In this document: in pieces, positions 1-15,889 of the stretch
Numbering within the stretch: position 1 is the first letter of the stretch
How the letters are laid out: every line of letters begins with the position of its first letter
Assembly (NCBI GenBank): GCA_964510585.1
Contig: CAZECW010000125.1
Coordinates: 1-19,125 of the forward strand
Length of the DNA stretch: 19,125 nucleotides
Reading direction: 5' to 3'
From: an uncultured archaeon
GTDB taxonomy: Archaea; Asgardarchaeota; Jordiarchaeia; Jordiarchaeales; Jordiarchaeaceae
The notes under the pieces: model-generated
The model's database searches: none
What the model was told of the DNA's origin: nothing
What the model saw: only the letters and a program-made list of their open reading frames with translations
Made by a program: the position numbers and the translations under genes

Positions 1-1
1 G

Positions 2-67
2 ATGAAACTCGTGCTTGACCTAGAAAAATTGGACAACATACACAAATTAATGCAGCTTATGCATTGA
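2..67 (+). CDS. Possible 3' end of an upstream gene (…MKLVLDLEKLDNIHKLMQLMH*); resembles C-termini of MmgE/PrpD-family proteins
   Basis: Frame 2 is open from the window edge to TGA at 65-67 and encodes an amphipathic LDLEKLDNIxxLM tail. Only 21 residues are visible, so the family call is weak. Confidence 0.3.
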   Translation: MKLVLDLEKLDNIHKLMQLMH

Positions 68-99
68 ACCGCAAGAAAGTTTTGTAGAATCCCACCTTT

Positions 100-397
100 A
101 GTTTTCATAAAAAAGTTGGGTAAACCCCTCCCAAAGCCCTCTCGATCCCAAGCCTTACAAGTGGTGTGGATAACTCTCCTCAATAACTTTCCCCATTTTA
201 TTCAACAAACACAAGGACACTACTAAGAGTAGCTGAGCTTCACAGTGAAGATTAATAGGGCTTCACAGGAGACTTTTCTCCTGGAAATCGTATTAAGTAG
301 AGCATTAAACTTCCGAGAGTTAACTTTGAAAAACTATCTGGAGGCTCCACCTCCTTCCAAGGATAAAGATTTGGTTTTTAATTTCGTCCTTCCCCAC
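100..397 (-). pseudogene. Probable degraded HxlR-family winged-HTH regulator remnant
   Basis: GTG at 397 gives MGKDEIKNQIFILGRRWSLQIVFQS*, like the HxlR 'lG.kW.l.Il' motif. A shifted frame then gives RKFNALLNTIS (HxlR 'RFNEL..si'), and a later segment gives LNKMGKVIEESYP. Stops and frameshifts interrupt it. The 3' boundary is approximate. Confidence 0.35.
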
Positions 398-639
398 CTT
401 AAAAAATAAAGGAGTTAGAAATTACAGAAACATACAAATTTAACCAACTATTTGAAGAAATTAAGTATAAACAAAGTCGCCTAATTTAGATAGGGAAAGA
501 GATGCTGTTAAAAAAGGGATTCTCGGAAAAAGGTTAAGGATATAGACAGCCTGAAAGATATTATAAATTATAAGGGCGTTAGAAATTCATATTAGAACCC
601 AGAGAAAGACTAAATTCAATATAGTTTAGGGTGTCGTGA

Positions 640-2313
640 ATGGAATTTAAAGAAATAAATTTTGTTTCGGATGTATTGGTAATCGGTGCAGGTGGGGCTG
701 GTACTAGGGCGGCTATAGAGGCTCATGAAAAAGGTGTCGACGTATTAATTGTTGCGAAGGGCGGTTTCCCCTCTGGATGCACTCCCATTGCTGGGGGAAT
801 AATGCAGGCCCCAATCGATCCTAACGATAGCCCAGAAATCTACTTTAAGGACGTTATAGAGGGAGGAGCAAAGGTAAACAACCAGAAACTAGTTAGAATA
901 CTTACAAGTGAGGCTAGGGATAGGGCTCTGGACCTAGATAGGTTTGGAACACCCTTCATGAAACAAGATGGAAAGTTTTTAGCGGTGGGCGGTCCGGGAA
1001 CATCACGCAATCGCCTCCTCCCGGTTACAGACCTCTATGGATCAGCGTGGATTAGCGGTTTAGTAAACGAGGTTAAACGCAGGGAAATTAGAGTCTTGGA
1101 GAGAATTATGATAACAAGACTCTTAACAGACAATGGAAAAGTTGTGGGAGCCACAGGGATAAATCTCAAAACTGGAGAATTTTTGGTTTTCAATGCCAAA
1201 ACAATTATTTTGGCCACCGGAGGAGCAGGGCAACTCTACGGTTTAACAACAAACCCTCGGGATGTTACCGGTGACGGATACGCTTTGGCCTACCGGGCTG
1301 GAGCTGAGCTGACGGATATGGAATTTATCCAGTTTAGAGCTTGCATAGTTTACCCGCCGGGGCTAAGGGGGCAGCCTCCACCAGCAGATGGGATGCCTGG
1401 AAGGGGTGGTAGGTTCTACAATGCCCTTGGGGAGAGATACATGAAGAAATATGATCCGGTGCATGCTGAAGAAGTGACCCGTGACTTGATTGCCATCCGA
1501 GCCCGAATAGAGATAAGGGAGGGTAGGGGAACAGTTCACGGTGGGGTTTACAATGATCTTTCGGGTTTGCCTGAAGAGATGTGGCCTCTTTTTTCAAAAT
1601 TTAGGGAGGCCTGTAAAGCTGAGGGCATTGACCCTTCTTGGCAGCCTGTGGAGTGGGCTCCCGGAGTTCACCACTTTATGGGCGGTGTTAGAATCAACGA
1701 AAAGTGTGAAACTAATGTTTCTGGCCTCTTTGCGGCTGGAGAGGTTGAGGGCGGAATTCATGGCGCGAACAGAATTGGTGGAAACGCTCTAACCGAAACC
1801 CAGGTCTTTGGAGCAAGAGCCGGAAAATTTGCTGCAGAAAAGGCATTATCCACACCTATGCCCAAAGTTAATGAGAAGCAGATTGAAGAGGAAAGAAACC
1901 GAATTCTGGAAATTTATCTACGCAGGAAGGGTGTGGATGCAGGGAAGATAAAAGCAGAAGTTCAGGGAATAATGGAGAAGTACGTTGGAGTTATTAGAAA
2001 CGCTGAAGAACTCCAAAAGGCAATAAATGAACTTGTGAGAATCAGGGAGGAAAAATTACCCAAACTATGGATTGGAAATGAAAAATCATTGGAAAATCTC
2101 GGCGAAGCATTAGAAGTTGTAAACTTCGTGGATGTTGGAGAAATGGTGGCTAGGGCAGCACTCATGAGAACAGAGAGCCGGGGAGCGCACTATAGGGAGG
2201 ACTACCCACAACAGGACGATGAGAAATGGTTAAAGAACATTATCATTCGTTTAGAAGCTGGAGAAATGAAGCTGCGAACCCAACCCATCCAGTCACTCAA
2301 TTGTCAACTATAA
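640..2313 (+). CDS. SdhA/FrdA/TfrA-family FAD-dependent oxidoreductase flavoprotein (557 aa), non-covalent-FAD type, altered substrate site
   Basis: Motifs GAGGAG, ATGGAGQLY..TTNP...TGDG, EVTRD, HHFMGG, HGANRIGGNAL, RTESRGAHYRED. SGCT replaces the RSHT covalent-FAD motif. GGGTG RBS at about 629-633. Confidence 0.93.
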   Translation: MEFKEINFVSDVLVIGAGGAGTRAAIEAHEKGVDVLIVAKGGFPSGCTPIAGGIMQAPIDPNDSPEIYFKDVIEGGAKVNNQKLVRILTSEARDRALDLDRFGTPFMKQDGKFLAVGGPGTSRNRLLPVTDLYGSAWISGLVNEVKRREIRVLERIMITRLLTDNGKVVGATGINLKTGEFLVFNAKTIILATGGAGQLYGLTTNPRDVTGDGYALAYRAGAELTDMEFIQFRACIVYPPGLRGQPPPADGMPGRGGRFYNALGERYMKKYDPVHAEEVTRDLIAIRARIEIREGRGTVHGGVYNDLSGLPEEMWPLFSKFREACKAEGIDPSWQPVEWAPGVHHFMGGVRINEKCETNVSGLFAAGEVEGGIHGANRIGGNALTETQVFGARAGKFAAEKALSTPMPKVNEKQIEEERNRILEIYLRRKGVDAGKIKAEVQGIMEKYVGVIRNAEELQKAINELVRIREEKLPKLWIGNEKSLENLGEALEVVNFVDVGEMVARAALMRTESRGAHYREDYPQQDDEKWLKNIIIRLEAGEMKLRTQPIQSLNCQL

Positions 2314-2700
2314 AAAAACCAATGTGAAAGTTAGTGGTGAGCATATTTGCTAGAAATGAGGCTCACACTCATTACTGAAAAAATGAGTAGAATTTTAACG
2401 AGTAGTAGATGTTTAGAGGCACCATAGGCGGGATAGAATTCTTAGAGAGGTGGTATAAAGATTCTTCTTGAAGTACGTGATTTGATTTAGATGCATTCTT
2501 TAATAGTTGGAAAAACTTTCGAAGAATGAGTAGACTGTGAATCCTCTTCGTAGAGTGCACTGAAATAAATGTGTGAAATTGATTGTTTTTGTTTCTGTTT
2601 TTTGAAGGAATAACTGGAGGGGACTTTTTTGGTTTCTAGCATATTTTTTGAATTTAAAAATAGAAAAAGGAGGAATGATTGGTTTTTGATTTTTGTTGAA

Positions 2701-4491
2701 TTATATTTCTCTGGAGGAGTAGAAAACAATAGACCAAAGTAAGAATGTTAAGAGTATTAGTGCGAAGCCTATAATTAGTATTAGGGGCCAGACGAAGCCA
2801 CCTACAATGAAAAATAAAGCACCTATGATGCATAGAACTCCGGCAAATGAGGAAGCATTTGGGCTATTGGTCATATCACGCATAGAGTGACTTGCAAAAC
2901 CCAGCACAATGAAGGCGAAGCCAAGCACCGTGAAGCCTATCCACATAAGTTGGAAATTCGGTGTGCACACAGGTAAAAATGGAACCGAAGACATTTCCAA
3001 AGGTGCACTTGCATACTTGTAATCTACTGTTAGGTTTCCCATAATGATGAGCAATGCTCCAGATATGATACCTATAATGCCCAAGATGGAGCCAATTATA
3101 TTCGCCGTTCCTACACCGATCTCGTATGTGCCGCAGAAACCAATACCTATCAAAACGCTGGTCGCAATGAGAAATACGCACATTATGAAGGATAATTCAA
3201 GGAATATAGGAGCAGAAGAATAAAAGAGGGGTAAAGCCATAATGGGTTCACCATGATACATGTAGCTTAGATGCGCCATCCACGGAGCCAGTATAAACAG
3301 GTAACTATTAAGCTGTACAAGGTAAATGGATATTTCAGATAAAAAGTTGTAGGCCTTAATAACCCATGCTATACCTATGCCTGCGGTTACGGCTCCAATT
3401 ATTCCTCCGACTGCCCCAATCAAGAATGCATCTCTAGACAGCCTCCAACCCCCTTCTGCTTGCCCTACACCTTTTCTACTTCTATAGGCAATCACTAGGC
3501 ATAGTGACACGACTGTAAGCAATGTGGCCAGTAAACCTATCACCAGGAAATTTGAAGCAAACGGTATATTCTGCTGATAAAAGTAGAGCGAGACATAAGA
3601 GTTATAGAGCAGATTGCCCAGTATGGTGGGTCCGGTGGCGATGACTGTGTTATTCTCAATAGTGTTGCCAACTGAGGGGGAGTCATAATATACTCCCCTA
3701 CCCCAGAGGTCTATGACAACGTTACCTGTAACGGTGTTGTATGAGCTGGACCAAAGTTCGAAGCCAGCCATACCGTTGTACTTAGCAGTGTTGCCGGACA
3801 GATTATTGGAGTCCGAGTAGCGGTACAGGTGGAAGCCGCCCCAAGCGTTATTTGCAGCGGTATTACCAGAAAGATAATTATTACAAGACCCACTTTCTAA
3901 GAAAAAGCCGCTGTAACTGTTTTCTTTGGCTGTGTTGTTTGAAAGAATATTATTAAAACTATGTACTAGGTAGAAACCCCAACCATTGCTATTTGCAGTA
4001 TTGTTTAATAGAATGTTGTTATTTGAATCGGAATTTAAATAGAAGCCACAGTAACCCCCGTGATAGTCGTAGCGGTTATTGTTTGCAATGTTGCCCATGA
4101 GAGTGTTGTTTGAACTACCGTTCAGGTAGAAGCCGTACTGCCACCCTGTGACTATAACGTTTTTTATGGTCACATTACTTCTGCCAGTCAAGTTAAAGCC
4201 GCACCCAGACCCTGAACCCTTTAGGGTGTATCCCTTTCCATCTATTACAATATTGTCCGCTGCGACCACTATAGTTTCATAAATGTTTCCGGTAAAATTG
4301 TAGTCAGTCGAGAGTTCCATCTTTTCATGAATAATGCTGGAAGACCCCTGTGAGACGCCAAGTATGTAAAAGTTGATTGGCGGATAAATATCCCGGTCAT
4401 GGATCGAGATTACCACTGCAGTTGCTACTACGAGTAAAATGACTGCGAAGAAAAACATTTTTAGTTTTTTCCACTCTCTTTTAATCCCCAT
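2701..4491 (-). CDS. Membrane protein: N-terminal anchor, NosD/CASH right-handed beta-helix (PbH1 repeats), polytopic C-terminal membrane domain (596 aa)
   Basis: About six tandem GFYL..S.NN.L.(G/N)N.A..N repeats, a hydrophobic N-terminal segment (MFFFAVILLVVATAVVISI), about 7-8 hydrophobic helices in the C-terminal half, and GAGGG RBS upstream of the ATG. Confidence 0.88.
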   Translation of the reverse strand: MGIKREWKKLKMFFFAVILLVVATAVVISIHDRDIYPPINFYILGVSQGSSSIIHEKMELSTDYNFTGNIYETIVVAADNIVIDGKGYTLKGSGSGCGFNLTGRSNVTIKNVIVTGWQYGFYLNGSSNNTLMGNIANNNRYDYHGGYCGFYLNSDSNNNILLNNTANSNGWGFYLVHSFNNILSNNTAKENSYSGFFLESGSCNNYLSGNTAANNAWGGFHLYRYSDSNNLSGNTAKYNGMAGFELWSSSYNTVTGNVVIDLWGRGVYYDSPSVGNTIENNTVIATGPTILGNLLYNSYVSLYFYQQNIPFASNFLVIGLLATLLTVVSLCLVIAYRSRKGVGQAEGGWRLSRDAFLIGAVGGIIGAVTAGIGIAWVIKAYNFLSEISIYLVQLNSYLFILAPWMAHLSYMYHGEPIMALPLFYSSAPIFLELSFIMCVFLIATSVLIGIGFCGTYEIGVGTANIIGSILGIIGIISGALLIIMGNLTVDYKYASAPLEMSSVPFLPVCTPNFQLMWIGFTVLGFAFIVLGFASHSMRDMTNSPNASSFAGVLCIIGALFFIVGGFVWPLILIIGFALILLTFLLWSIVFYSSREI

Positions 4492-4723: not shown

Positions 4724-6328
4724 TCAAGGTGTTTTGTTCCCACTTTTAGGAGATGGTTTATAGGCGTCTGCGAAAAGTTGGTAAAAGTCGTACAGGTTGA
4801 ATCCGACTGCCTCTCCCTTTTTCTCTTTTTGTTCTAGGACTCTCTTGAATTGTAGCATGCAGAATGGGCAGTTTGTTACTAGTCCGTTTACTCCGAATGC
4901 TTGGGCTATTTCTATTCTTCTGGCGGCTAGTCGGTCTGCGAGTTCAGGAAAGGCTGATCTCACTCCGCCCCCTCCACCACAGCACCAGCCGGACTTGGGA
5001 ACTCTCACCAGCTCTACGCCTGGAATTTTTTGAATCAAATTCAAGTATATTTCTTCTTCTAGCCCGCTGGCCATTATGTGGCAGGGGTAATGGTACATGA
5101 GTCTTACTTTTATGGGTTTGAGGTCTTCTGTGTTCAACTTTATTTTTCGCTCCATGTATTCTCCGACATCGTATATTTCGAAGTTGATGGGGATTCCATA
5201 CTCTTTGGCGAGTTTTGGGTAATCTTTTCTGAAGGTGGAGTTGCATCCGGAGCAGCTTGTTAGCACTTTTTTAACGCCCCTCTCTGCATACTCGTTGAAT
5301 ATGGTGAAGTTCTTTGTGACGAAGGGTTTCATACTGTCCCTCTGACCGGTTCTCATAAACGGGGAACCGCAGCAGGTTTGGCCTTTGGGTAGATGAACAG
5401 CTACACGATTATTTTGGAATATGTCTATTATTGCCTTTGCTACTGGTTGCTGTCTACGATTTATTATGCAGCCAGTAAAGAGTACGATTTCGTCCTGGGG
5501 TTCCCCCTCAAAATTTTTGATGTACTCTGGAAACAAGTCTATGGCGGGGGTGTCAATCACGGGTACGGAACCTCCGGTCTCCAGTACAGATTGAACTATT
5601 GCTCTGTGCTGGGGGAGGGGGCCAACACCTTCAACCACACTTCGGTACCGGAGGTACTCAACGACGCTTCTCCTTATGTCTATTTTTCGGGGGCAGGCAA
5701 CCTCACACTCCTGGTCTACTGGACATTTGAAAAGGCCTTGATCCACAGCTTCTCTTAGTCTTCCCTCGCTGGCATCTAGAGGGTCGCATATGAATCTGCA
5801 TATTTCAACTAGTGCTGCTGGTCCCAGAAATGTACGGTCTACATCTATGACGTTGCAGTCTGAGTAGCAGGCGGCACAGAGTATGCACTGTTTATTTTCT
5901 ATCATCTGCTCCAAGTCTTGGGGCGGAATTTTGGGTATGCCTCTAAATTCTCCCACCGTGAGGTCGGTGATTCGCCAGGGTCGCACTGCCCTTATACTCT
6001 GGAAGAAGGGGTCCAAGTTTACCACAAGGTCCCTTATAACTTCTAGATGGTCGAGGGGTTCAACTAGCAATGAACCATCTACAAGTACGTCCTTCACGAA
6101 TGTTTTGCAGGCTAATCCTGCCCTCTTGTTTATCCTCACAGCGCAGGAACCACATTGACCCATTCTGCAGGATGAGCGGAATGTTAAGGATTCATCTATG
6201 TTCTCTTTGATGTATAGGAGGGCTTCCAGAACTGTGGTGTCCTCTGTCACATTCAAATCAAAGTTTTGATAGCGGGGTTCAGTGTCAGTTTCGGGATTAA
6301 ATCTATAAACTGTTAGCTTGACCTTCAC
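4724..6328 (-). CDS. tfrB: TfrB-like protein: SdhB/FrdB Fe-S domain fused to two HdrB/HdrD-type CCG domains (534 aa)
   Basis: 2Fe-2S motif CRMGQCGSC…C; CILCAACYSDC; CPVDQECEVACP; CCG domains FTGC…TCCGSP…SCSGC and YHYPCH…WCCGGGGG…NCPFC. GTG start with GAGGTGA RBS overlapping the upstream TGA (6338-6340). Confidence 0.85.
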   Translation of the reverse strand: MKVKLTVYRFNPETDTEPRYQNFDLNVTEDTTVLEALLYIKENIDESLTFRSSCRMGQCGSCAVRINKRAGLACKTFVKDVLVDGSLLVEPLDHLEVIRDLVVNLDPFFQSIRAVRPWRITDLTVGEFRGIPKIPPQDLEQMIENKQCILCAACYSDCNVIDVDRTFLGPAALVEICRFICDPLDASEGRLREAVDQGLFKCPVDQECEVACPRKIDIRRSVVEYLRYRSVVEGVGPLPQHRAIVQSVLETGGSVPVIDTPAIDLFPEYIKNFEGEPQDEIVLFTGCIINRRQQPVAKAIIDIFQNNRVAVHLPKGQTCCGSPFMRTGQRDSMKPFVTKNFTIFNEYAERGVKKVLTSCSGCNSTFRKDYPKLAKEYGIPINFEIYDVGEYMERKIKLNTEDLKPIKVRLMYHYPCHIMASGLEEEIYLNLIQKIPGVELVRVPKSGWCCGGGGGVRSAFPELADRLAARRIEIAQAFGVNGLVTNCPFCMLQFKRVLEQKEKKGEAVGFNLYDFYQLFADAYKPSPKSGNKTP

Positions 6329-6337
6329 AAAATCACC

Positions 6338-8050
6338 TCAATAAGTCCTCTTTTCCGGTTTAAACATGGTGATTGTCACATTCTCGTAGGTTAATATGGG
6401 CATTTCGGGATGGTAGTGTAATATTATGTGTTTTGTCCAGTTTTCATAGTCCCGGTTGGGATAATCGGTTCTATAGTGTGCTCCTCGGGTTTCCCGCCTC
6501 GTCAGCGCAGCTAGTGTGGTGGCTTCCGCTAAATCCAGCATGTTTCCTAGCTCTAGGGCTTGGATAAACGCATTGTTGTAAATGGTGCTCTTATCTTCAA
6601 CGTATATTTTTGTGTATTTTTCTTTGAGTTCCCGAATTTTCTTTAGAGCTTCTGTTAATCCTTGTTCGTTGCGGAATAGTCCCACCTTCTCCCACATGGT
6701 TTGTCTCAGTTCGTCTCTCAGCTTTGGAACGCTGTACTCTCCTCTCTCACTGAAGAATTTGTATAATCGTTCCTCCTCCTTCTTTATCTTCTCTTTGGGA
6801 ACCGAGCGGAGACCCTCATTTCTAATGTATTCACAGGCTCTTTGTCCCGCCCTTTTTCCGAAAACCACACACTCAGTGAGAGCATTGGCTCCTTCCCTAT
6901 TCGCCCCATGAACACTCACACAAGCCACCTCTCCAGCGGCAAAAAGGCCCTTTATGGAGGTCTCAGTCCAAGTGTTGGTTTTCACACCACCCATCCAGAA
7001 GTGTTGACCGGGCACCACAGGAATAACGTCTTCCTTTATATCCACTTTAGCAAAAACACTCGCTAACTCTGCGAATTCAGCCAGCCTCCTCCTGAAGAAG
7101 CTTAAGGGTATGTTGGTGACTTCAAGAAGCTTTTCCAGCTCCTCTATTTTTATGTGGGTTAAGTCCAGCCCAATGTATTTCCCCTCTATTCCTCGACCCT
7201 CATTTATCTCTGTTTGCATAGCCTGAGAAACAACGTCTCTAGGTGCCAATTCCATAAAGTTTGGGGCATACCTCCTCATAAAACGCTCCCCTTCACTATT
7301 AATTAGTGTGCCGCCAATCACCCGGGCAGTTTCAGATATTAGTGTTCCCCGAGGGTAAAGAGTTGTAGGATGAAACTGCACAAACTCCGGATCTTTAAGT
7401 GGAGCACCAGCCCTATAGGCCATCGCGGTTCCGTCTCCGGTACACACACTTGAATTGGTGGTTCTGGCATAAACCCAACCGAATCCCCCGGTGGCCAGAA
7501 TTACAGCCTTAGACCTTATGGTGTGGAATTCTCCATTTTTTATCTCAATCGCAGTTATTCCTCTACACAAGTTGTCCTCCACGAGGAGAGAGGTGACGAA
7601 CCACTCATCGTAAAAGGTGACTCCTCTCCTCCAGAGCTGCTCCTGCAAAGCCATCACAAGTTCCCTTGCCCACTGAGACGAAACAATTATTCCAGTTTTT
7701 GTGCTCATACCTCCGGGGCTCGCCCTGAGCAACTCTCCATCTCGACCCCTTGAGTATACTACTCCCCAAGACTCAAGCAAAGGTATCTCGACTTCCGCCC
7801 CATCCGCCAAAACCTCCACGGCATCCTGATCCGCCATGTAGTCACTACCCTTAATTGTTTCCTGTAAATACATTTCCTTGGGCTCATTGGGAGCCGGCGG
7901 GAAATGTAATGCACCGGTGGCTACACAGGTGTGAGACCTTAAGGGATGAACCTTGGAAACAACCGCAACATCTGCATACTCACTGGCCTCCAGAGCAGCC
8001 CGGAGTCCAGCTAGGCCACCACCCACAATCACAATATCGTGAACAATCAT
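6338..8050 (-). CDS. sdhA: Succinate dehydrogenase/fumarate reductase flavoprotein subunit (covalent-FAD His motif present)
   Basis: Motifs GGGLAG, RSHT, QFHPT, LISETAR, ELAPRD, HFWMGG, HGANR, RRETRGAHYRTD. Start moved from TTG 8065 to ATG 8050 because AGGGAG lies just upstream of it. Translationally coupled to tfrB. Confidence 0.9.
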   Translation of the reverse strand: MIVHDIVIVGGGLAGLRAALEASEYADVAVVSKVHPLRSHTCVATGALHFPPAPNEPKEMYLQETIKGSDYMADQDAVEVLADGAEVEIPLLESWGVVYSRGRDGELLRASPGGMSTKTGIIVSSQWARELVMALQEQLWRRGVTFYDEWFVTSLLVEDNLCRGITAIEIKNGEFHTIRSKAVILATGGFGWVYARTTNSSVCTGDGTAMAYRAGAPLKDPEFVQFHPTTLYPRGTLISETARVIGGTLINSEGERFMRRYAPNFMELAPRDVVSQAMQTEINEGRGIEGKYIGLDLTHIKIEELEKLLEVTNIPLSFFRRRLAEFAELASVFAKVDIKEDVIPVVPGQHFWMGGVKTNTWTETSIKGLFAAGEVACVSVHGANREGANALTECVVFGKRAGQRACEYIRNEGLRSVPKEKIKKEEERLYKFFSERGEYSVPKLRDELRQTMWEKVGLFRNEQGLTEALKKIRELKEKYTKIYVEDKSTIYNNAFIQALELGNMLDLAEATTLAALTRRETRGAHYRTDYPNRDYENWTKHIILHYHPEMPILTYENVTITMFKPEKRTY

Positions 8051-8182
8051 AAAATTCTCCCTCAACTATTCGCATTACTAATGTAAAGTTTTCTCTTTTA
8101 CGGACCTCGTTTTATGGACATTGTTATTTTTTGTATTATTTTTCGAGGGTAGATTAAGTTTATGATTTTTGTGGTGGCAAGA

Positions 8183-8213: not shown

Positions 8214-8480
8214 GTGGTATTTTTGCCCTCTGTGAAGGTGAGTTTAAGTTTGCCTGAAGAACTCTTAAAAATAGTAGATAAAGCTGCAGACGAGAATAAG
8301 ATGAGTAGAAGTGAGTTCGTTACCCGAATTCTGGAAAAGGCATTGAAGCCAGAAGAAGAGGTTCACAGGTACCCAACGGTTCTCTGGAAGCTACAGAAAT
8401 CGGGATACCTGAAACTTAGAAGCCCCAGATATCCTAGTAGAAGAATTGGGAGATGGATAGTGGAGGATGCAGAGGAGTGA
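8214..8480 (+). CDS. Ribbon-helix-helix (CopG/MetJ/Arc) DNA-binding protein, antitoxin-like (88 aa)
   Basis: VKVSLSLPEELLKIVDKAADENKMSRSEFVTRILEKAL is a clear RHH pattern. TTG 8223 is an alternative start. Confidence 0.88.
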   Translation: MVFLPSVKVSLSLPEELLKIVDKAADENKMSRSEFVTRILEKALKPEEEVHRYPTVLWKLQKSGYLKLRSPRYPSRRIGRWIVEDAEE

Positions 8481-8908
8481 GAGTCTCATACAGTTTTTCT
8501 GAGGGAGGATACACAGCTCAGGGAGATATAATACCGGATGTGCCAATCGTCAACTTGGCTCTTAAGGTGGGAAGATGCAGAGCCAGAGGCCCGGCAATAA
8601 TTGACACTGGGTTTGACGGAGGCGTTTACCCAAATATGGAAATTACGAGACTCTTTAAAGACGCTGAACCTCTCCTAGTAGTAGAATTTGAAAATCCGCT
8701 CTATGGAAGAACGGAGTTTGAGGTATTCACCGCTCAAGCCTTCCTAAATTATGGGAGAGACTACTTTAGTATAGGTGAGGTGAAAGTCTACGTACCAACC
8801 GAACCCGAACACATAACTGGAGAGGTATTAGTTGGCAGGGAAATACTCAACCAGTTCAAAGCCCTACTACTGGAACCCCAAACAAAAACCTTAACCATAG
8901 ACCTATAG
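8477..8908 (+). CDS. Clan AA (retropepsin-like) aspartic protease (about 143 aa)
   Basis: AIIDTGFDG catalytic DTG motif and C-terminal VLVGREILNQF (hhGRxhL). Start moved to GTG 8477, which forms a GTGA overlap with the RHH stop and has GGAGG/GAGGA upstream. Confidence 0.85.
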   Translation: MRVSYSFSEGGYTAQGDIIPDVPIVNLALKVGRCRARGPAIIDTGFDGGVYPNMEITRLFKDAEPLLVVEFENPLYGRTEFEVFTAQAFLNYGRDYFSIGEVKVYVPTEPEHITGEVLVGREILNQFKALLLEPQTKTLTIDL

Positions 8909-9092: not shown

Positions 9093-9374
9093 TTAATCTA
9101 TTTTTGGTGTGAATTTGAGTACCAGCCAGTGGCGTCTTGAGATTCTCAGAGCAACTTTGTTTTTGCCGTGTATCACCTGTTTGGCGTATGGCTTTATTTC
9201 TTCAAGTATTGAGGCGTCGCTTCCAGAAAATTCCACTTTTAGGGGGAGGTGTGAAACTTTGAAGATATTTCCTCCGAGCTGGTAGTATTCAGCCCAGGGC
9301 CCCACAAGTTTGAATCCCCTATCTTCGAGAATTTTCAGGACCTCTTGTGGAATCACGTCTGATAATTTTAACAT
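9093..9374 (-). CDS. Small hypothetical protein (93 aa) coupled to the nucleotidyltransferase
   Basis: ATG at 9374 overlaps the upstream stop by 7 nt. Composition is protein-like and the ORF fills the space. Confidence 0.72.
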   Translation of the reverse strand: MLKLSDVIPQEVLKILEDRGFKLVGPWAEYYQLGGNIFKVSHLPLKVEFSGSDASILEEIKPYAKQVIHGKNKVALRISRRHWLVLKFTPKID

Positions 9375-9895
9375 TGTTTAGCCCCCAACCGCCTGGATAA
9401 TTTATTAAATTCTTTAAGTAGCCCTGCTTCTCTAACTCTTTTACATAGGAGACCGTAATCTATTTTCTCAGCTTTCACTAGTACATCTTTTAAATCTTCG
9501 TAGTCCCTTCGACCAAAGGCCATAAGCTTTGTTACTATTAAATCCTCTATGGATGGTAGGTAAAGATTGCCACGAATTTTTTTTGAGTGCTTTTTGAAAT
9601 CAGCATCGTATATCATTAAAGGCACATTTACATCGATTCTATTGCTGCTTGAAGTTTTTATAGAGAGCCCCCAGCTTCGCCACTGAACGTTAAATCCTCT
9701 CTTTCTCAGCTCCTCTGTTATTTTTCCTCTTAGCTCCTCAACATTACCAACTGACACCATAACATCAATATCCTTCGTTGTGCGGTGTAGAAGACCGTGA
9801 AGAATTAGTGCCCTCGCCCCAATCAAGTAGACGTCATAATTATATTTCTCAAAAACTTTCAACAATTCCTCAAAATCCACAGGAAACTCAAACAT
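9368..9895 (-). CDS. DNA polymerase beta-superfamily nucleotidyltransferase (DUF6036/AbiEii-like, 175 aa)
   Basis: YLIGARALILHG…RTTKDID (G…R-T-x-D-x-D) and C-terminal SIEDLIVTKL…GRRDYED. GGGTGG RBS. Confidence 0.82.
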   Translation of the reverse strand: MFEFPVDFEELLKVFEKYNYDVYLIGARALILHGLLHRTTKDIDVMVSVGNVEELRGKITEELRKRGFNVQWRSWGLSIKTSSSNRIDVNVPLMIYDADFKKHSKKIRGNLYLPSIEDLIVTKLMAFGRRDYEDLKDVLVKAEKIDYGLLCKRVREAGLLKEFNKLSRRLGAKQC

Positions 9896-10114: not shown

Positions 10115-11014
10115 TTAGAAATTTTCGAATTCGAAATGGGAGAAGATGTTTTTTATTTTTTCTTTTTCGTCCTTGTTTAGCCATTCTGAGCGGTGGTATT
10201 CTGGTTTTACTCCGATTTTTTCTGGTTTAGATAGCCATAGTGGGTTGTAGGGTAATAGGCCGATTTTTTTGATATTTAGAGATTTTAGGTATTGGGCTAG
10301 TTTGGTTAGATTTTCTTCTGTGGCGGTGATGTTGGGGATTAGTGGGATTCGTGGTAGGACTTCTAGTTTCTGGTGTTTTATTAAATCCTCGAAGTTGCTG
10401 AAGATTTTTTCATTTTTTGCTCTACAGTACTTCAAGTGTAAGTCAGGGTCGAATATTTTTAAATCAAAATAGATGAGGTCTACGTAGGGTAATATTAATT
10501 CGTTGAATTTTTCGCGGTTATAGTATCCGCTGGTTTCTATGCAGACGTGGATATTTTCCTTTTTGAGTTCCTTTAATAGTTGGTTTACATATTCCATGTG
10601 GTAGAGGGGCTCGCCGCCGGATAGGGTGACTCCGCCACCAGAGTTCTTATAAAAAATTTTGTCTTTTAATATGATGTCAACGAGTTCTCTTATTTCGTAT
10701 TCTTTGCCCACAAATTTTAGTGCCTCATTTGGGCATACCTTTATGCATTCGCCGCAGAGATTACATAGACTGCGATCTATGCGGTAGGGGTATGAGAAGT
10801 CTATGGCCTTCATTTTGCAGGCTTCTATGCATCTTCCGCATTCTCCACAGTTTTCCCTGTAGAAGGCTATTTCCTGATTTGGATTTTTGGTCTCGGGATT
10901 TTGGCACCAGACACAGGATAGGGGACACCCTTTAAAGAAAATTAGGGTGCGTATCCCAGGGCCGTCATCCAATGCGTTTCTCTTAATGTCCACTATTAAT
11001 GTTCTTTTCGTCAT
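10115..11014 (-). CDS. Glycyl-radical enzyme activating enzyme (radical SAM) with 2x[4Fe-4S] ferredoxin insert (299 aa)
   Basis: DGPGIRTLIFFKGCPLSCVWCQNPE; inserted CGECGRCIEAC and CNLCGECIKVCP; GGGVTLSGGEP; ETSG; DLK; PRIPLIP; LLPYN. Confidence 0.95.
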   Translation of the reverse strand: MTKRTLIVDIKRNALDDGPGIRTLIFFKGCPLSCVWCQNPETKNPNQEIAFYRENCGECGRCIEACKMKAIDFSYPYRIDRSLCNLCGECIKVCPNEALKFVGKEYEIRELVDIILKDKIFYKNSGGGVTLSGGEPLYHMEYVNQLLKELKKENIHVCIETSGYYNREKFNELILPYVDLIYFDLKIFDPDLHLKYCRAKNEKIFSNFEDLIKHQKLEVLPRIPLIPNITATEENLTKLAQYLKSLNIKKIGLLPYNPLWLSKPEKIGVKPEYHRSEWLNKDEKEKIKNIFSHFEFENF

Positions 11015-11029
11015 TGCTTCTCAACTATT

Positions 11030-11054
11030 AAAAAGTTAAAGAAAAAGAAAAAAA
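11030..11054 (-). terminator. Oligo-T terminator-like tract between the GRE and its activase
   Basis: The minus strand reads TTTTTTTCTTTTTCTTTAACTTTTT, 6 nt after the GRE TAA (11061-11063). Confidence 0.5.
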
Positions 11055-11060
11055 TGTTTT

Positions 11061-14030
11061 TTATCTTGAGCAGAACTCTGTCCTCTCAATTATTTCCTGC
11101 TGCATGTTCTTGTTCAATTTTACAAAGTAGGCATTGTATCCAGATACCCGAACCAGCAGCCAGCGGTAATCGTCGGGATTTTTCATAGCGTCCCTAAGTG
11201 TGTCTGAAGTTATTACGTTAAATTGCCACTGCATCCCACCTAGGTCAAAGAAGCTCTGAACATAGCTGGTGAACAAGTCAAGTGTTTTCTTGTGTGAATC
11301 TCCCGGATGTGGCACAAGCTTCACATTGAAGGAGGCATTGTTGGGCATTTTCAGATAGTTCATGCTTGCTATTGAGCGGATGTTTTGGAGTAACTGGTCT
11401 GAGGGACCTGGGGCGGGGGTGAGTCCAGGGGTGAAGGCTTTCCCCTTCTTTCTTCCTGAGGGTAGGGCTCCGGAGAGCATGCCGAAACCTACATGGTAGC
11501 TTATGGACCAGTATCCTACGAGGTAGTTTCCTCCGCGATAGTTTTTGGCTGGGTTGTATATGTCGAAGCAGTAATCTATTAGGTCTTGGGCTACCTCATT
11601 GGTTCCTGGCTCATCTGAGCCGAACTTGGGAACCTTCTGGATTTTGCGTAGTACCTCCTCGGTTCCATTCTCGAAATTGTTTTCCAGGGCGTTCATTAGG
11701 GTTGGCCAATCTAGAACCTTCTTTTTATAGATTAAGTCCCTTATGACAAGTAGGCTGTCCACAACGTCAGTCAATGAAACCAAAGCCACTCCAGAAGTGT
11801 TGTAAATGGCTCCACCATTAACTACATCGGTTCCCTTCTCCAAGCAGCCCTCAAACATTGACGAGAGAAGCGGGGTTGGATGTATGTACTGGTGTGCATA
11901 TCCTAGGTAATTGTTAATTTCAATCGATTTTTCTGCTAGGTATCTTAACTGTGTTTTGTAGGCGTTGAGGAAATCCTCAAATGTGTCGAATGAGTTTCTA
12001 ACATCCCCAGTTTCTGGACCTATTTTTTCGCCCATCACTGGATGTACTCCATTGTTGAGAGCCATTTCCAGGGGGGCAACAAGGTTTAGAAGCATGCAGT
12101 TTGTGTGGCCGAAGTGTTTTCCAACTATTGTGGGCTCAACGCAGCCGGTGGCAGCCCAATCCCTTGCATCTTCGATGGGGATTCCCTGGTAGACTAGGGC
12201 TTCAATCATTGCCTTATCGTTGTGGATGGAGGGGGAGGCAACCATGTTAATGTTTACTTCGCATAGTCGTCTCAAATATTCCTTAGAATTTACTCCAGTA
12301 TAGTATCGGGCGTTCATGTTTGGGTCTTGGAAGCATAGCATTTCCGCCACTTTGAGAATAATGTAGGTCATATCGTTTACAGCATTTTTTCCCTCCCTGT
12401 CTACTCCTCCCACGGTTACAGTGTCGTCTGAGGAACTGCCACCAAAAAGTTTGTTTCCAACACTGGGCACCAGTGGGTCGTGGTCGTTAATCCTGAGGAA
12501 GAAGTGTCCCACCAGCTCTATGGTTCTTTTTACTATTTCTTCCCTCTCTTTGTCGGTTTTTGCTTGTGACATTTCTTTCTCAAAGTAGGGTTGAAGCATT
12601 TGGTCCAGCCTTCCAATGGACATGGCGGAATTAGCGTTTTCAGCATGGATGCAGGTCCATGTTATCCAGAGGGAAGTTAGTGCTTCATGTATGGTTTCTG
12701 CGGGTTTTGCTGGTACCTTGGCGCAGATTCTTGATATTTCTTTTAGTTCCTCTATTCTTTTGGCTTGTTGGGGGTCGTTTGGGTTTAGGGTTTCCGCTAT
12801 TCTTAGAGCTTCCTTACTTAGGTTTTTGGCGTGGTTTAGGACTCCATCGATTACTATTTGGACTGCCTTGTAGAAGTTCTTTTTCTCTGGAGATTTTGCC
12901 TGTTTCTCCTTTAAAGCCGCTTCCTCCCTGATTTTTTCAAATCCCATGGTTAGTACCTTGGGGAGCCCTGGAACAGTGTGGGATATGGCATTGTTCTTCA
13001 TCATAAAGTATAGTACGAATCTCTCCTCTAATTGTTGGGAGATGGGGTTTCCATACTTTTGTCTGCAGTATTCGCGGACGTTTCTATCCATCCAGTATGG
13101 GAAAACTTCGAAGTTTAGAATATCTGCATCTTGGGGGGAAATGTCATTGGGGTTGAGTTCCCTCTTATATATTGTCCTCAACTCTGGCCAGATAGCGGTT
13201 CCTATCAGTTCGGGATAGATGGGTATGCCCACCTCTTTAGTGGTTGTGGAGCCGGGAATGAGGTATTGGTCGTGGATTATGGGTTTGCGGTTTGTCAATA
13301 TGTGGTATAGTGCTTTTGCCTGGCGGAGTTCTGGGTCGATTGGTTTTCCATTCTTGTCCGTTTCGAAACCGTTCTCTCTGTGGTATTCTGTTAGAAGCTT
13401 GGCTCTCTCCACACAAATTGCGGGTTTGAGGGCGTAGCGGCGGTTCTTCAAGTATTTTAGGCGTGGAAAATCATCAATGGAATATTTTCCCAGGTAGGGG
13501 TCTTCAAGAAACTTTACGTTGTCCACCTTTCGACCCAGGATTTCGTTTTGGAGGCGTTTCCTCTTCTCCTTATCGATGTCCCCTATAGGGTAGAGTAACC
13601 TGTTTCCGGGGCCCTTGTAGCCCTTTATCTTGGCTCCCTTAATAACAGTGGTCATGTAGGAGAACTTGGTGAGGTAAGCCATGTTCCCAACATAATTCAT
13701 CTCATTGGTTAACAAGTAGTTGAGGGATTCCTCAGGACTCTTGTTCCAGATTTTAGCCATGGTTTCTTTATCTTTATAGTAAATGGTAATGTTTGGGTTC
13801 TCGATTACCCCGTCACTTACCTTCATTTTTCCGTCCTTAAAAACCACATATATGTTGACTTTGCCGTCACGGGTTTTGAACTGGTACTTCGCGTTGAAAA
13901 TGAATCCTGTTTCCTTATTGTAAATCTCCTTACGAAGTTTTGGACTTATTCTAAACAGTAACCCCATCAGTCTCAACGAAAGCTTAAACATTCCAATCGA
14001 AAGGTTACTTTTAAACTCTTTAAGACTCAT
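11061..14030 (-). CDS. Glycyl radical enzyme (PFL2/dehydratase-like superfamily) with N-terminal SCP2-like extension (about 989 aa)
   Basis: Gly loop RVSGY (Gly codon 11141-11139), single-Cys loop GCVEP (Cys codon 12143-12141), GRLDQ, SHTVPG, LPSGR. Start moved from TTG 14048 to ATG 14030 because of the AGGTGG RBS. Confidence 0.93.
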   Translation of the reverse strand: MSLKEFKSNLSIGMFKLSLRLMGLLFRISPKLRKEIYNKETGFIFNAKYQFKTRDGKVNIYVVFKDGKMKVSDGVIENPNITIYYKDKETMAKIWNKSPEESLNYLLTNEMNYVGNMAYLTKFSYMTTVIKGAKIKGYKGPGNRLLYPIGDIDKEKRKRLQNEILGRKVDNVKFLEDPYLGKYSIDDFPRLKYLKNRRYALKPAICVERAKLLTEYHRENGFETDKNGKPIDPELRQAKALYHILTNRKPIIHDQYLIPGSTTTKEVGIPIYPELIGTAIWPELRTIYKRELNPNDISPQDADILNFEVFPYWMDRNVREYCRQKYGNPISQQLEERFVLYFMMKNNAISHTVPGLPKVLTMGFEKIREEAALKEKQAKSPEKKNFYKAVQIVIDGVLNHAKNLSKEALRIAETLNPNDPQQAKRIEELKEISRICAKVPAKPAETIHEALTSLWITWTCIHAENANSAMSIGRLDQMLQPYFEKEMSQAKTDKEREEIVKRTIELVGHFFLRINDHDPLVPSVGNKLFGGSSSDDTVTVGGVDREGKNAVNDMTYIILKVAEMLCFQDPNMNARYYTGVNSKEYLRRLCEVNINMVASPSIHNDKAMIEALVYQGIPIEDARDWAATGCVEPTIVGKHFGHTNCMLLNLVAPLEMALNNGVHPVMGEKIGPETGDVRNSFDTFEDFLNAYKTQLRYLAEKSIEINNYLGYAHQYIHPTPLLSSMFEGCLEKGTDVVNGGAIYNTSGVALVSLTDVVDSLLVIRDLIYKKKVLDWPTLMNALENNFENGTEEVLRKIQKVPKFGSDEPGTNEVAQDLIDYCFDIYNPAKNYRGGNYLVGYWSISYHVGFGMLSGALPSGRKKGKAFTPGLTPAPGPSDQLLQNIRSIASMNYLKMPNNASFNVKLVPHPGDSHKKTLDLFTSYVQSFFDLGGMQWQFNVITSDTLRDAMKNPDDYRWLLVRVSGYNAYFVKLNKNMQQEIIERTEFCSR

Positions 14031-14287
14031 CAAACCACCTAGAATCAAATTTTTATTTAGTCTCCCTCATCAATCATCACTACATGTTCTCTCCAGTTTA
14101 TAATTGGGAAACAACAGCTTTTTGAACATTTTATTTCAAGTAAGAGTATAATAAACATTTTGTTTTGGTAAATTGTACTGAAATCTAAAAACCTAAAGGT
14201 TAAAAATTTATTAGTAAACGGTGAAAAATAATTCATTAAAATAGAAGTTGGAACAATCTGGAGGGTGATTGAACGCCGTCCAAAACG

Positions 14288-15297: not shown

Positions 15298-15696
15298 CTA
15301 GTAGAGTTCAACTTGAAACTCTTCGATATTTTTGTAGCTCTCATCCTTGGTGACGAGCTTTGCATTGTTTTCTATGGCGACAGCTGCAATTAAAACGTCT
15401 ATGAGATTCATCTGTCTGCCTTTTTCTTTTAGCTCAAATTCAATGTTTGCCGCTATTCTTGCGGAGGAAGCTGTGAAGGGTAAAACAGTTAGTCTCTCAA
15501 GAAACCTTACAGCATCACTATATTCCTTCACTCTCCCCGCTATTTTTGGGCCCCTCAAGATTTCCCAAGCCACAATTGAAGTGGTTAAAAGAGGATACTC
15601 TCTAATTTCTTTATATTTCTGTATTGAGTGCTCCTTTCCTCTCAAAAAGTCTACCAAGAAGGTTGTTTCAAGGCAGTATCTTTGCGTTTTTATCAA
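15298..15696 (-). CDS. vapC: VapC PIN-domain toxin
   Basis: YCLETTFLVDFLRG, SIVAWEILRG, IDVLIAA, LVTKD. Likely start TTG 15696 with GAGGGGAG upstream; it overlaps the antitoxin 3' end. Confidence 0.88.
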   Translation of the reverse strand: MIKTQRYCLETTFLVDFLRGKEHSIQKYKEIREYPLLTTSIVAWEILRGPKIAGRVKEYSDAVRFLERLTVLPFTASSARIAANIEFELKEKGRQMNLIDVLIAAVAIENNAKLVTKDESYKNIEEFQVELY

Positions 15697-15889
15697 ACTC
15701 TTTTCTCCCCTCAAGTATTACCTTCTCAATTTCTTCGGCGTCTTTCCAGGCTCCAGCAAACTCAATCAGGTTCTTTTTTTTCCCCTCAGTAAGTCTGATT
15801 ATGACATCGCTAAAGCTTTCACCTTCCAGTTTCTCCCTCTTTAACCGTTCATATGCTTCAAGGGTTATTGTCAAAGTCTTAGTTGGCAT
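15668..15889 (-). CDS. vapB: VapB antitoxin (DUF217-like, 73 aa)
   Basis: TKTLTIT.EAYERLKR.K..GESFSDVIIRL signature, directly upstream of the PIN gene. Confidence 0.88.
   Translation of the reverse strand: MPTKTLTITLEAYERLKREKLEGESFSDVIIRLTEGKKKNLIEFAGAWKDAEEIEKVILEGRKEFDKNAKILP

Follow-up and report, generated by a model that had tools for sequence, protein, structure and literature searches.

The gene at positions 640 to 2313 of the forward strand of contig CAZECW010000125.1, from an uncultured archaeon of the order Jordiarchaeales, encodes a flavoprotein of the succinate dehydrogenase and fumarate reductase type whose predicted substrate pocket is rewired. The stretch of DNA analyzed here (the window, 19,125 nucleotides) is the entire contig. 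The protein belongs to a clade, present in archaea and bacteria, which we read with a probability of about 0.5 as a dedicated oxidoreductase for 2-substituted succinate or fumarate, with methylsuccinate/mesaconate as the first candidate pair and tricarballylate/aconitate as the second. This reading was reached because the residues expected to hold the distal half of the substrate are replaced, the proximal catalytic residues are kept and the neighboring genes would handle substituted dicarboxylates. A first-pass annotation, made from the letters of this DNA, had proposed a reductase or dehydrogenase for a non-fumarate enoate. The alignments, the tree, the paralogues and the gene neighbors support that proposal in silico, and the substrate class is likely to be narrower, that is, 2-substituted succinates and fumarates.

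The sequence and the structure model both assign the 640-2313 protein to the SdhA/FrdA/NadB superfamily, with a predicted three-domain fold. Pfam identified the FAD_binding_2 domain (E 1.6e-67) and the Succ_DH_flav_C domain (E 6e-29). The top NCBIfam model was TfrA (NF004900) at 502.4 bits, with a cut-off of 718, and the protein also scored below the cut-off for every SdhA, FrdA and NadB equivalog; the nadB model TIGR00551, for example, gave 312 bits against a cut-off of 452.75. No TcuA model was present among the best 25 of the 59 NCBIfam families matched. The nearest solved structure was Mycobacterium smegmatis Sdh1 (7d6v), identity to the SdhA/FrdA subunits of complex II was 28-34%, the match to UrdA was weak (E 1e-17) and a search of the ESM Atlas returned only generic names. 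An AlphaFold2 model, built with 34 homologues as input, had a pLDDT of 92.6, and its Foldseek TM-scores were 0.91 with the SdhA of M. smegmatis Sdh1 and 0.90 with E. coli FrdA. The dN/dS ratio was 0.08-0.10 with two congeneric orthologues, which indicates that the gene is under purifying selection. A pseudogene, or a degeneration private to this gene, was ruled out by the family-wide conservation described below and the dN/dS of about 0.1.

Residue numbers for E. coli FrdA were taken from NC_000913.3, and the numbering of the literature was confirmed to be that of the mature protein, since H44, H232, T244, E245, R248, R287, H355 and R390 all matched the expected letters. The register was checked in three ways: HMMER pairwise alignment to solved SdhA chains, local-pair MAFFT alignment with diverse references, and an alignment of 137 sequences. 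The latter held 121 members of the rewired clade and 16 canonical proteins, namely E. coli FrdA, SdhA and NadB, the SdhA and NadB of this genome, Methanobrevibacter TfrA, and ten other archaeal or bacterial proteins of the SdhA/TfrA type. A register error was rejected, as all three alignments concur and the protein shares the flanking MEFIQ and GG..N blocks with the canonical proteins. The features of the gene are as follows.

640 to 2313, forward strand: flavoprotein gene of the rewired clade, 557 amino acids, stop-free translation.
685 to 702, forward strand: GAGGAG dinucleotide-binding motif for flavin adenine dinucleotide (FAD), residues 16-21, from the sequence.
778 to 780, forward strand: C47 (SGCT) at the covalent-FAD His position, FrdA H44, from the alignment.
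1330 to 1344, forward strand: QFRAC replacing QFHPT (H232 to R233, T234 to C235), from the alignments.
1378 to 1422, forward strand: rebuilt capping-domain loop PPADGMPGRGGRFYN replacing L-x-T-E-x-x-R-G-E-G-G-x-L-x-N, from the alignment.
1480 to 1482, forward strand: R281, the equivalent of the FrdA proton donor R287, kept in 120 of 121 clade members.
1654 to 1671, forward strand: clade-specific W339, where canonical proteins have Val or Ile, and the kept H344, the equivalent of FrdA H355; both in 121 of 121 clade members.
1771 to 1773, forward strand: R378, the equivalent of the FrdA carboxylate clamp R390, kept in 121 of 121 clade members.
2173 to 2202, forward strand: ESRGAHYRED block, a typical SdhA and FrdA feature, in the C-terminal helical domain, from the sequence and alignment.

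The FAD site is retained, with G16 and G18 of the GAGGAG motif invariant in the family alignment. Position 47 is Cys in 106 and Ser in 12 of the 121 clade members and His in 11 of the 16 canonical proteins. The loss of the covalent-FAD histidine was recognized in the first-pass annotation and compared there with methanogen TfrA; Methanobrevibacter TfrA indeed reads RSGCT at this site. With a cysteine at this position, non-covalent FAD is predicted, and the best explanation of the gene product is a cytoplasmic flavoprotein that binds FAD in this way.

In E. coli FrdA, fumarate is oriented by H232, H355 and R390 and twisted into the transition state by T244, while R287 is the proton donor and E245 takes part in the proton shuttle; H232 mutants lose both fumarate reduction and succinate oxidation and T244 mutants have severely impaired catalytic efficiency (PMC5773532). 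The retention of R287, H355 and R390 equivalents, and the substitutions H232 to Arg, T244 to Ala, E245 to Asp and R248 to Pro, had all been read from the sequence beforehand, and each was found residue for residue in the alignments (R281, H344 and R378; R233, A249, D250 and P253). The last three substitutions lie in ADGMPGRGG (nucleotides 1384-1410). The alignments added further changes: T234 to C235, L242 to P247, E250 to R255, I253 to R258, L254 to F259 and V350 to W339. The H, P and T of QFHPT are present in all 16 canonical proteins. In the clade R233 occurs in 107 of 121 members (the remaining 14 have Met, and all 16 canonical proteins His), and C235 in 112 of 121 (Thr in 16 of 16). D250 is found in every clade member and Glu in every canonical protein, position 249 (FrdA T244) is Ala or Gly across the clade, and R258, present in 118 of 121, is hydrophobic or Lys in the canonical proteins. 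P248, G251, F259, Y260, N261 and W339 are each conserved in 121 of 121.

All 16 canonical proteins thus keep the distal clamp and transition-state residues (H232, T234 and T244) and the relay residues (E245 and R248), for which the 640-2313 protein has R233, C235, A249, D250 and P253; all 121 clade members consistently differ from the canonical set at the substituted positions. The alignments show a clade that retains the FAD site and the predicted proximal catalytic half, with R281 as the presumed donor and H344 and R378 as the presumed clamp for the first carboxylate. They also show that this clade has replaced the residues that would relay the proton and that would hold and twist fumarate at its distal half. 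The candidate specificity residues form a short list open to testing: R233, C235, A/G249, D250, R258, F259 and W339. The position of E. coli SdhA F119 was also considered, as an E. coli strain evolved on methylsuccinate has this residue mutated to Leu (bioRxiv 10.1101/2025.11.12.688011). The corresponding residue is Gly118 in the 640-2313 protein and Phe or Tyr in most of the clade, so a change at this position is not a family feature.

A protein search returned more than 120 full-length relatives with 50-87% identity to the 640-2313 protein, from Asgard archaea (Freya-, Hod- and Promethearchaeota), Nezhaarchaeota, Methanomethylicia, Chloroflexota, Planctomycetota and Proteobacteria. The relatives have a common block, MEF[IV]Q-x-R-x-C ... 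PP-x-DG-x4-GG-RFYN. When variants are included, the clade signature is Q-x-R/M-x-C ... P-P-x-D-G-x4-G-G/A-R/K-F-Y-N plus W339, and the 640-2313 protein carries it. The substitutions are a family signature and not a peculiarity of the 640-2313 gene. In a quick maximum-likelihood tree for which 38 clade members were sampled, all 38 were monophyletic (SH-aLRT 100). The clade sits outside a group of TfrA, SdhA, FrdA and NadB supported at 97, and it adjoins other divergent orphan clades. The alignment and phylogeny that the first-pass annotation had named as checks thus found clade-wide substitutions in correct register and a single lineage outside the canonical group, and its structure-model check gave the high-confidence fold described above. 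A scan of genome contigs with the family alignment used generic motifs and returned mostly canonical SdhA, and it served for reference sequences only. No fused forms that would reveal a redox partner were found among longer proteins.

Within the clade, the 640-2313 protein clusters with Freyarchaeota sequences at 69-87% identity, and the names carried by its nearest database relatives (69-81% identity) put the host in the Freyarchaeota of the Asgard archaea. Position 253 is Val in 103 of 121 members, Pro in eight Freyarchaeota sequences only, and Arg in all 16 canonical proteins. P253 and R255 are restricted to the Freyarchaeota sub-clade, and most clade members have Val and Leu there; the R248 to Pro change and the PGRGG arginine are sub-clade features. 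The basic residues appear to shift around the loop between sub-clades. Most members have R233 and a hydrophobic LVTLGG loop, the Freyarchaeota sub-clade has R233 and R255, the Nezhaarchaeota sub-clade has Met and His255 (QWMTC..VAHGA), and the Loki/Promethearchaeota sub-clade has Met and Lys254 (QAMVC..VKFGA). The distribution is patchy, with true members in only 6 of 301 Asgard species representatives, 3 of which are among the six genomes of the genus.

Other orphan SdhA-like clades (loci L013, L031, L038, L070, L026 and L105) show pockets that are rewired differently, for example QFYPH..IIPEEVYYKDLVGG in a Clostridiales metagenome-assembled genome and QFYPT..PASNPLFGDGA in Bacillus. The superfamily appears to hold several uncharacterized specificities, because these clades group beside the rewired clade and their pockets differ from it.

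The genes that accompany the flavoprotein gene in the window are as follows.

2 to 67, forward strand: last 22 codons (MKLVLDLEKLDNIHKLMQLMH and the stop) of an MmgE/PrpD-family gene cut by the contig end, from translation and overlap with contig C199.
68 to 639, no strand: 572-nucleotide spacer that separates the epimerase-like from the flavoprotein gene, presumably promoter-bearing.
2314 to 4491: NosD-like right-handed beta-helix protein, 596 amino acids, convergent with the flavoprotein gene.
4724 to 6328, reverse strand: TfrB-like subunit, an SdhB-type iron-sulfur (Fe-S) protein fused to two CCG domains (NF004898; Pfam Fer2_3 and CCG).
6338 to 8065, reverse strand: canonical SdhA/FrdA paralogue, 575 amino acids, with RSHT, QFHPT and S-E-T-A-R (TIGR01812).
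10115 to 14048, reverse strand: glycyl radical enzyme, 995 amino acids, and its adjacent activase.

The full MmgE/PrpD gene is found in this assembly on contig C199 (2.5 kb), whose nucleotides 1926-2516 match window positions 1-576 with 86% identity. An identity of only 86% in this overlap suggests strain heterogeneity or a collapsed variant in this assembly. The C199 protein contains the MmgE_PrpD N and C domains, and the solved structure nearest to it is that of iminodisuccinate epimerase (2hp0/2hp3, E 2e-76); PrpD of the E. coli type was absent from its structure matches. The spacer at 68-639 contains no open reading frame of at least 60 amino acids and no Rfam match. This spacer is an assembly break point in two genomes (G000:C199 here and G056:C188).

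The TfrB-like protein scored 403.7 against the NF004898 cut-off of 385, and the canonical SdhA scored 634.5 against the TIGR01812 cut-off of 567. The TfrB-like gene directly follows the canonical SdhA gene and lies 2.4 kb from the rewired flavoprotein gene. The TfrB-like protein partners the canonical SdhA and is a candidate electron relay for the rewired flavoprotein. A canonical NadB is encoded elsewhere in the genome (contig C202). Since both a canonical SdhA with its TfrB-like partner and a canonical NadB are resident in the same genome, the 640-2313 protein is a third, non-redundant paralogue. In the sister species G064 (locus L112, G064:C13), class I fumarase alpha and beta genes lie between the flavoprotein gene and the NosD-like gene. 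These are missing from that interval here and in genome G082, and both genomes have lost the fumarase genes that G064 carries.

Two side observations concern the same region. The SdhA with the covalent-FAD His (RSHT) and the TfrB-like protein at 4724-8065 (reverse strand) occur with no membrane anchor in a non-methanogen host. In addition, the metabolic genes are interspersed with several small toxin-antitoxin-like modules: a CopG/RHH protein and, after it, a 151-amino-acid protein of unknown type (8214-8908), a DUF6036/AbiEii-like nucleotidyltransferase with a 93-amino-acid partner (9093-9895) and a PIN-domain protein (15298-15714).

The gene context recurs across the clade. The order of an epimerase-like MmgE/PrpD gene followed by the flavoprotein gene is repeated in four loci (L006, L093, L111 and L112), and class I fumarase genes follow the flavoprotein gene in L093 and L112. 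Further members of the L093 cluster are SdhA-TfrB, Iso_dh and a LeuCD-like pair. Loci L113-L115 belong to a second Asgard family; there the flavoprotein gene and Iso_dh are divergent from SdhA-TfrB, after which an MmgE/PrpD gene is found. The cluster of genes for the epimerase-like protein, the flavoprotein, class I fumarase, SdhA-TfrB, Iso_dh and the LeuCD-like enzyme recurs in Asgard loci of two lineages, and a TfrB-like gene is beside or near the rewired flavoprotein gene in L093, L113, L114, L115 and L006.

Wider bacterial and archaeal context came from twelve look-ups of homologues on long contigs, with NCBIfam annotation for detail. Three loci (L009, L090 and L091) have a methyltransferase, the flavoprotein, LeuC-like, LeuD-like and LeuB-like genes and then TRAP DctPQM. 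L116 has TRAP, flavoprotein and class I fumarase genes with a PrpB-like lyase, and L118 has a PrpF-like gene, the flavoprotein, a SucCD-like coenzyme A (CoA) ligase and a CitE/HpcH-like lyase. In L092 the series is MmgE/PrpD, PrpF-like, divergent enolase and flavoprotein, with the same ligase, lyase and fumarase adjoining, and in L119 (Nezhaarchaeales) Iso_dh is followed by the flavoprotein. No Fe-S partner or TfrB was encoded near the flavoprotein gene in the bacterial members.

Metagenomes were scanned with a DNA pattern specific for P-x-DG-x4-GG-R-FYN. This pattern matched 80 metagenomic loci. A family open reading frame was present in 76, and these fell into 47 clusters when dereplicated at 85% identity. 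At least two neighbors were visible in 41 of the clusters, and 34 of those 41 had at least one of the following organic-acid gene types within four genes; no recurring neighbor families were found in the metagenomic clusters beyond these types.

PrpF-like: 19 clusters.
TRAP DctPQM: 7 clusters.
SucCD-like ligase or CitE-like lyase: 5-7 clusters.
Class I fumarase: 6 clusters.
LeuCD-like: 5-6 clusters.
MmgE/PrpD: 6 clusters.
Divergent enolase: 6 clusters.
Iso_dh: 3 clusters.
PrpB-like lyase: 3 clusters.

The divergent enolase paralogue lies by bacterial flavoprotein genes in nine loci (L092:6666-7931, L127, L140, L146, L157, L160, L190, L191 and L194), and its eno model score of 342 is just over the cut-off of 300. 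A small UbiE/TehB-type S-adenosylmethionine-dependent methyltransferase gene is immediately upstream of the flavoprotein gene in L009, L090, L091, L136 and L182. These methyltransferase operons also carry LeuCDB-like genes and a TRAP transporter, and the methyltransferase is not close to the trans-aconitate methyltransferase model.

By their annotated families, the conserved neighbors would all act on C2/C3-substituted C4-dicarboxylates or their enoates. Citraconate and 3-methylmalate are processed by LeuCD and LeuB, proteins of the PrpF family shift double bonds in aconitate- and itaconate-type acids, and CitE-like lyases cleave citramalyl- or citryl-CoA. In Salmonella TcuA/TcuB, a FAD_binding_2 flavoprotein desaturates tricarballylate to cis-aconitate and passes electrons to a CCG-type Fe-S protein. 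This system, compared here by description only, shares the logic of desaturating a 2-substituted succinate; by the same description TcuA is set apart, as it is shorter and lacks Succ_DH_flav_C. The characterized MmgE/PrpD enzymes all act on C2/C3-substituted succinates, one of them being an (S)-(R)-methylsuccinate isomerase, and mesaconate is hydrated by class I fumarase (PMC12290011). E. coli succinate dehydrogenase oxidizes (S)-methylsuccinate to mesaconate, though poorly (bioRxiv 10.1101/2025.11.12.688011). The soluble PF00890 flavin reductases (UrdA, the cinnamate reductases and the itaconate reductase IrdA, which reduces itaconate to methylsuccinate; bioRxiv 10.1101/2022.12.26.521950) are a precedent for retuning the pocket around two conserved arginines. 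However, these flavocytochrome-c3/UrdA-type enzymes have no SdhA C-terminal domain and are usually extracytoplasmic.

The proposed enzyme would use FrdA-type chemistry, with hydride transfer to or from FAD N5 and proton transfer via Arg, and would interconvert a saturated and a 2,3-unsaturated 1,4-dicarboxylate with a substituent at C2. The leading pair would be (S)-methylsuccinate and mesaconate and the second tricarballylate and aconitate. The correct stereoisomer would come from the epimerase-like MmgE/PrpD protein, whose gene lies directly upstream. The product would pass to central metabolism via Fe-S hydratases (class I fumarase/mesaconase or LeuCD-like), which would be joined by a LeuB-like or isocitrate-dehydrogenase-like enzyme, or by a CoA ligase with a CitE-like lyase. 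In Asgard genomes, the electrons may be passed by the neighboring SdhB-CCG (TfrB-like) protein.

The methylsuccinate/mesaconate pair would explain every neighbor with a documented precedent. Tricarballylate/aconitate would equally explain the PrpF-like, MmgE/PrpD, aconitase-like, Iso_dh and 'Citrate_bind' ligase neighbors, and would also fit a cationic pocket. The operon-linked LeuD-like small-subunit loops read YLN[VT], YLSL, YMDL and FIMG and contain no Arg, and this leans toward an alkyl over a carboxyalkyl substituent. That leaning depends in part on YLRT and YLVY, which we take to be the loops of homoaconitase and isopropylmalate isomerase, respectively. The principle that the small-subunit loop sets specificity is described in PMC7308503. 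The loop was dropped as a decider between C5 and C6 substrates.

Several points weigh against a 2-substituted substrate, or against the order of the two candidate pairs. First, the substrate is deduced from gene neighbors only, and the TRAP transporter, fumarase and succinyl-CoA-ligase-like genes would also fit plain fumarate or succinate metabolism. Secondly, neither class I fumarase nor PrpF was detectable in this 96%-complete assembly. Third, the gain of R233 and R258 and the loss of E250 would make the pocket more cationic, and a substrate with a third carboxylate would suit it better than one with a methyl group. In addition, two sub-clades have Met for R233. Lastly, R233, R258 and W339 are only putative pocket residues.

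Beyond the enzyme itself, a more tentative proposal is that the clade may be the missing CoA-independent (free-acid) oxidoreductase for branched C5/C6 carboxylates in an undescribed anaerobic pathway for itaconate-family acids. Such a pathway would combine this enzyme with a racemase resembling iminodisuccinate epimerase, a double-bond isomerase of PrpF-like type, Fe-S hydratases, and steps by LeuB-like enzymes or lyases, and would be common to Asgard and TACK archaea and many sediment bacteria.

Among the rival explanations, the one that survives best, and is nevertheless unlikely, is a soluble TfrA-type enzyme that acts as an ordinary fumarate reductase or succinate dehydrogenase and binds fumarate with other residues (Arg for His and Asp for Glu). 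TfrA is the top NCBIfam model (502 bits), relatives are named 'fumarate reductase (CoM/CoB) subunit A' by JGI, and the protein keeps R281, H344 and R378. Common neighbors include genes for TRAP dicarboxylate transporters, class I fumarase and a succinyl-CoA-ligase-like enzyme, and a TfrB-like gene is nearby in Asgard genomes. The 640-2313 protein also shares with methanogen thiol:fumarate reductase TfrA a length of about 550 amino acids, the same two Pfam domains and a Cys for the covalent-FAD His. However, the score is under the 718-bit cut-off, and TfrA keeps H232, T234, T244, E245 and R248, whereas the rewired clade changes all five and forms a separate clade in the tree. Methanobrevibacter TfrA reads QFHPT..VTEAVRGEGG against QFRAC..PADGMPGRGG here, and identity as a true TfrA was ruled out by this comparison together with the NCBIfam cut-off. 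H232 and T244 are both required for turnover in E. coli FrdA (PMC5773532) and both are lost. The TfrB-like gene is already adjoined by the canonical SdhA, and a plain fumarate reductase would leave the PrpF-like, MmgE/PrpD, LeuCD/LeuB-like and PrpB-like neighbors unexplained. With the SdhA/FrdA subunits of complex II (1kf6; 7d6v) the protein shares the fold, the FAD site, the R287, H355 and R390 equivalents and the C-terminal ESRGAHYR block. Unlike them, it is predicted to lack covalent FAD, its distal clamp and relay are replaced and it has no Fe-S or anchor subunits of its own encoded.

Somewhat less probable is a NadB-like stand-alone oxidase of a C-N or C-O bond in an amino- or hydroxy-dicarboxylate, with electrons passed to a soluble acceptor; candidate substrates would be an N-substituted aspartate (iminodisuccinate-like), 3-methylaspartate and malate. 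Like NadB, the protein would be a stand-alone flavoprotein with non-covalent FAD, a three-domain fold and, in bacterial operons, no Fe-S partner, and its upstream neighbor is most similar to iminodisuccinate epimerase. On the other hand, every residue changed here is canonical in NadB, which has QFHPT and SEAVRGEGG and lacks ESRGAHYR. The first-pass annotation was correct that NadB keeps QFHPT, both in E. coli and in this genome. The nadB model gave 312 against a cut-off of 453, and nadA/nadC, C-N lyase and aminotransferase genes were not consistent neighbors in the metagenomic loci. Identity as NadB itself was ruled out, given the separate canonical NadB in the genome. The genome also contains a type-2 (Ldh_2-type) malate dehydrogenase, which argues against malate oxidation and weakens the idea of a stand-in for a missing malate dehydrogenase; no Ldh_1-type enzyme was found in the genome.

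It is very improbable that the flavoprotein serves an archaeal fumarate-addition pathway by oxidizing bulky alkyl- or aryl-succinates made by the glycyl radical enzyme, whose gene lies 9 kb away. The 995-amino-acid enzyme, encoded with its activase, has an N-terminal extension of about 195 amino acids with a weak SCP2 match (E 0.004), and SCP2 genes flank the epimerase-like and flavoprotein pair in L006. Its orthologue occurs in four congeners with the epimerase-like gene and not in two without it; the four genomes are close kin, however, so this co-occurrence is not independent evidence. The enzyme is under every NCBIfam equivalog cut-off, its nearest solved relative is Archaeoglobus fulgidus PFL2 (2f3o), and it is far more similar to PFL2 and dehydratases than to enzymes that add fumarate, with benzyl- and methylalkyl-succinate synthases at 194-214 bits against 427. 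There are at least five glycyl radical paralogues in the genome, and no such enzyme is near the flavoprotein gene in L093, L113-L115 or any bacterial locus. A bolder form of the itaconate-family pathway proposal, in which the neighboring glycyl radical enzyme would make a substituted succinate in this Asgard lineage, is equally remote.

It is already known that this fold has been retuned for other substrates in NadB, TcuA, UrdA, the cinnamate reductases and IrdA. The novelty lies in a large, cytoplasmic clade of SdhA type that has the C-terminal domain, defined replaced residues and a conserved catabolic neighborhood, and that is routinely mis-annotated as TfrA. No description of it was found in the literature on mesaconate, citraconate or aconitate reductase, methylsuccinate or tricarballylate dehydrogenase, or Asgard TfrA. 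Hundreds of clade proteins are labeled 'TfrA' or 'FAD-dependent oxidoreductase' in databases and are counted as fumarate reductases in reconstructions of Asgard archaea, Nezhaarchaeota, Methanomethylicia and many sediment bacteria. If substituted succinates are the substrates, those inferences about the tricarboxylic acid cycle and fumarate respiration would be wrong. Anaerobic degradation of the itaconate family is known only as reduction (PMC12290011), and the clade would then point to a new route by which itaconate, mesaconate, methylsuccinate or acids of the aconitate type are handled under anoxic conditions. As a natural experiment, the clade also shows how complex-II chemistry is retargeted.

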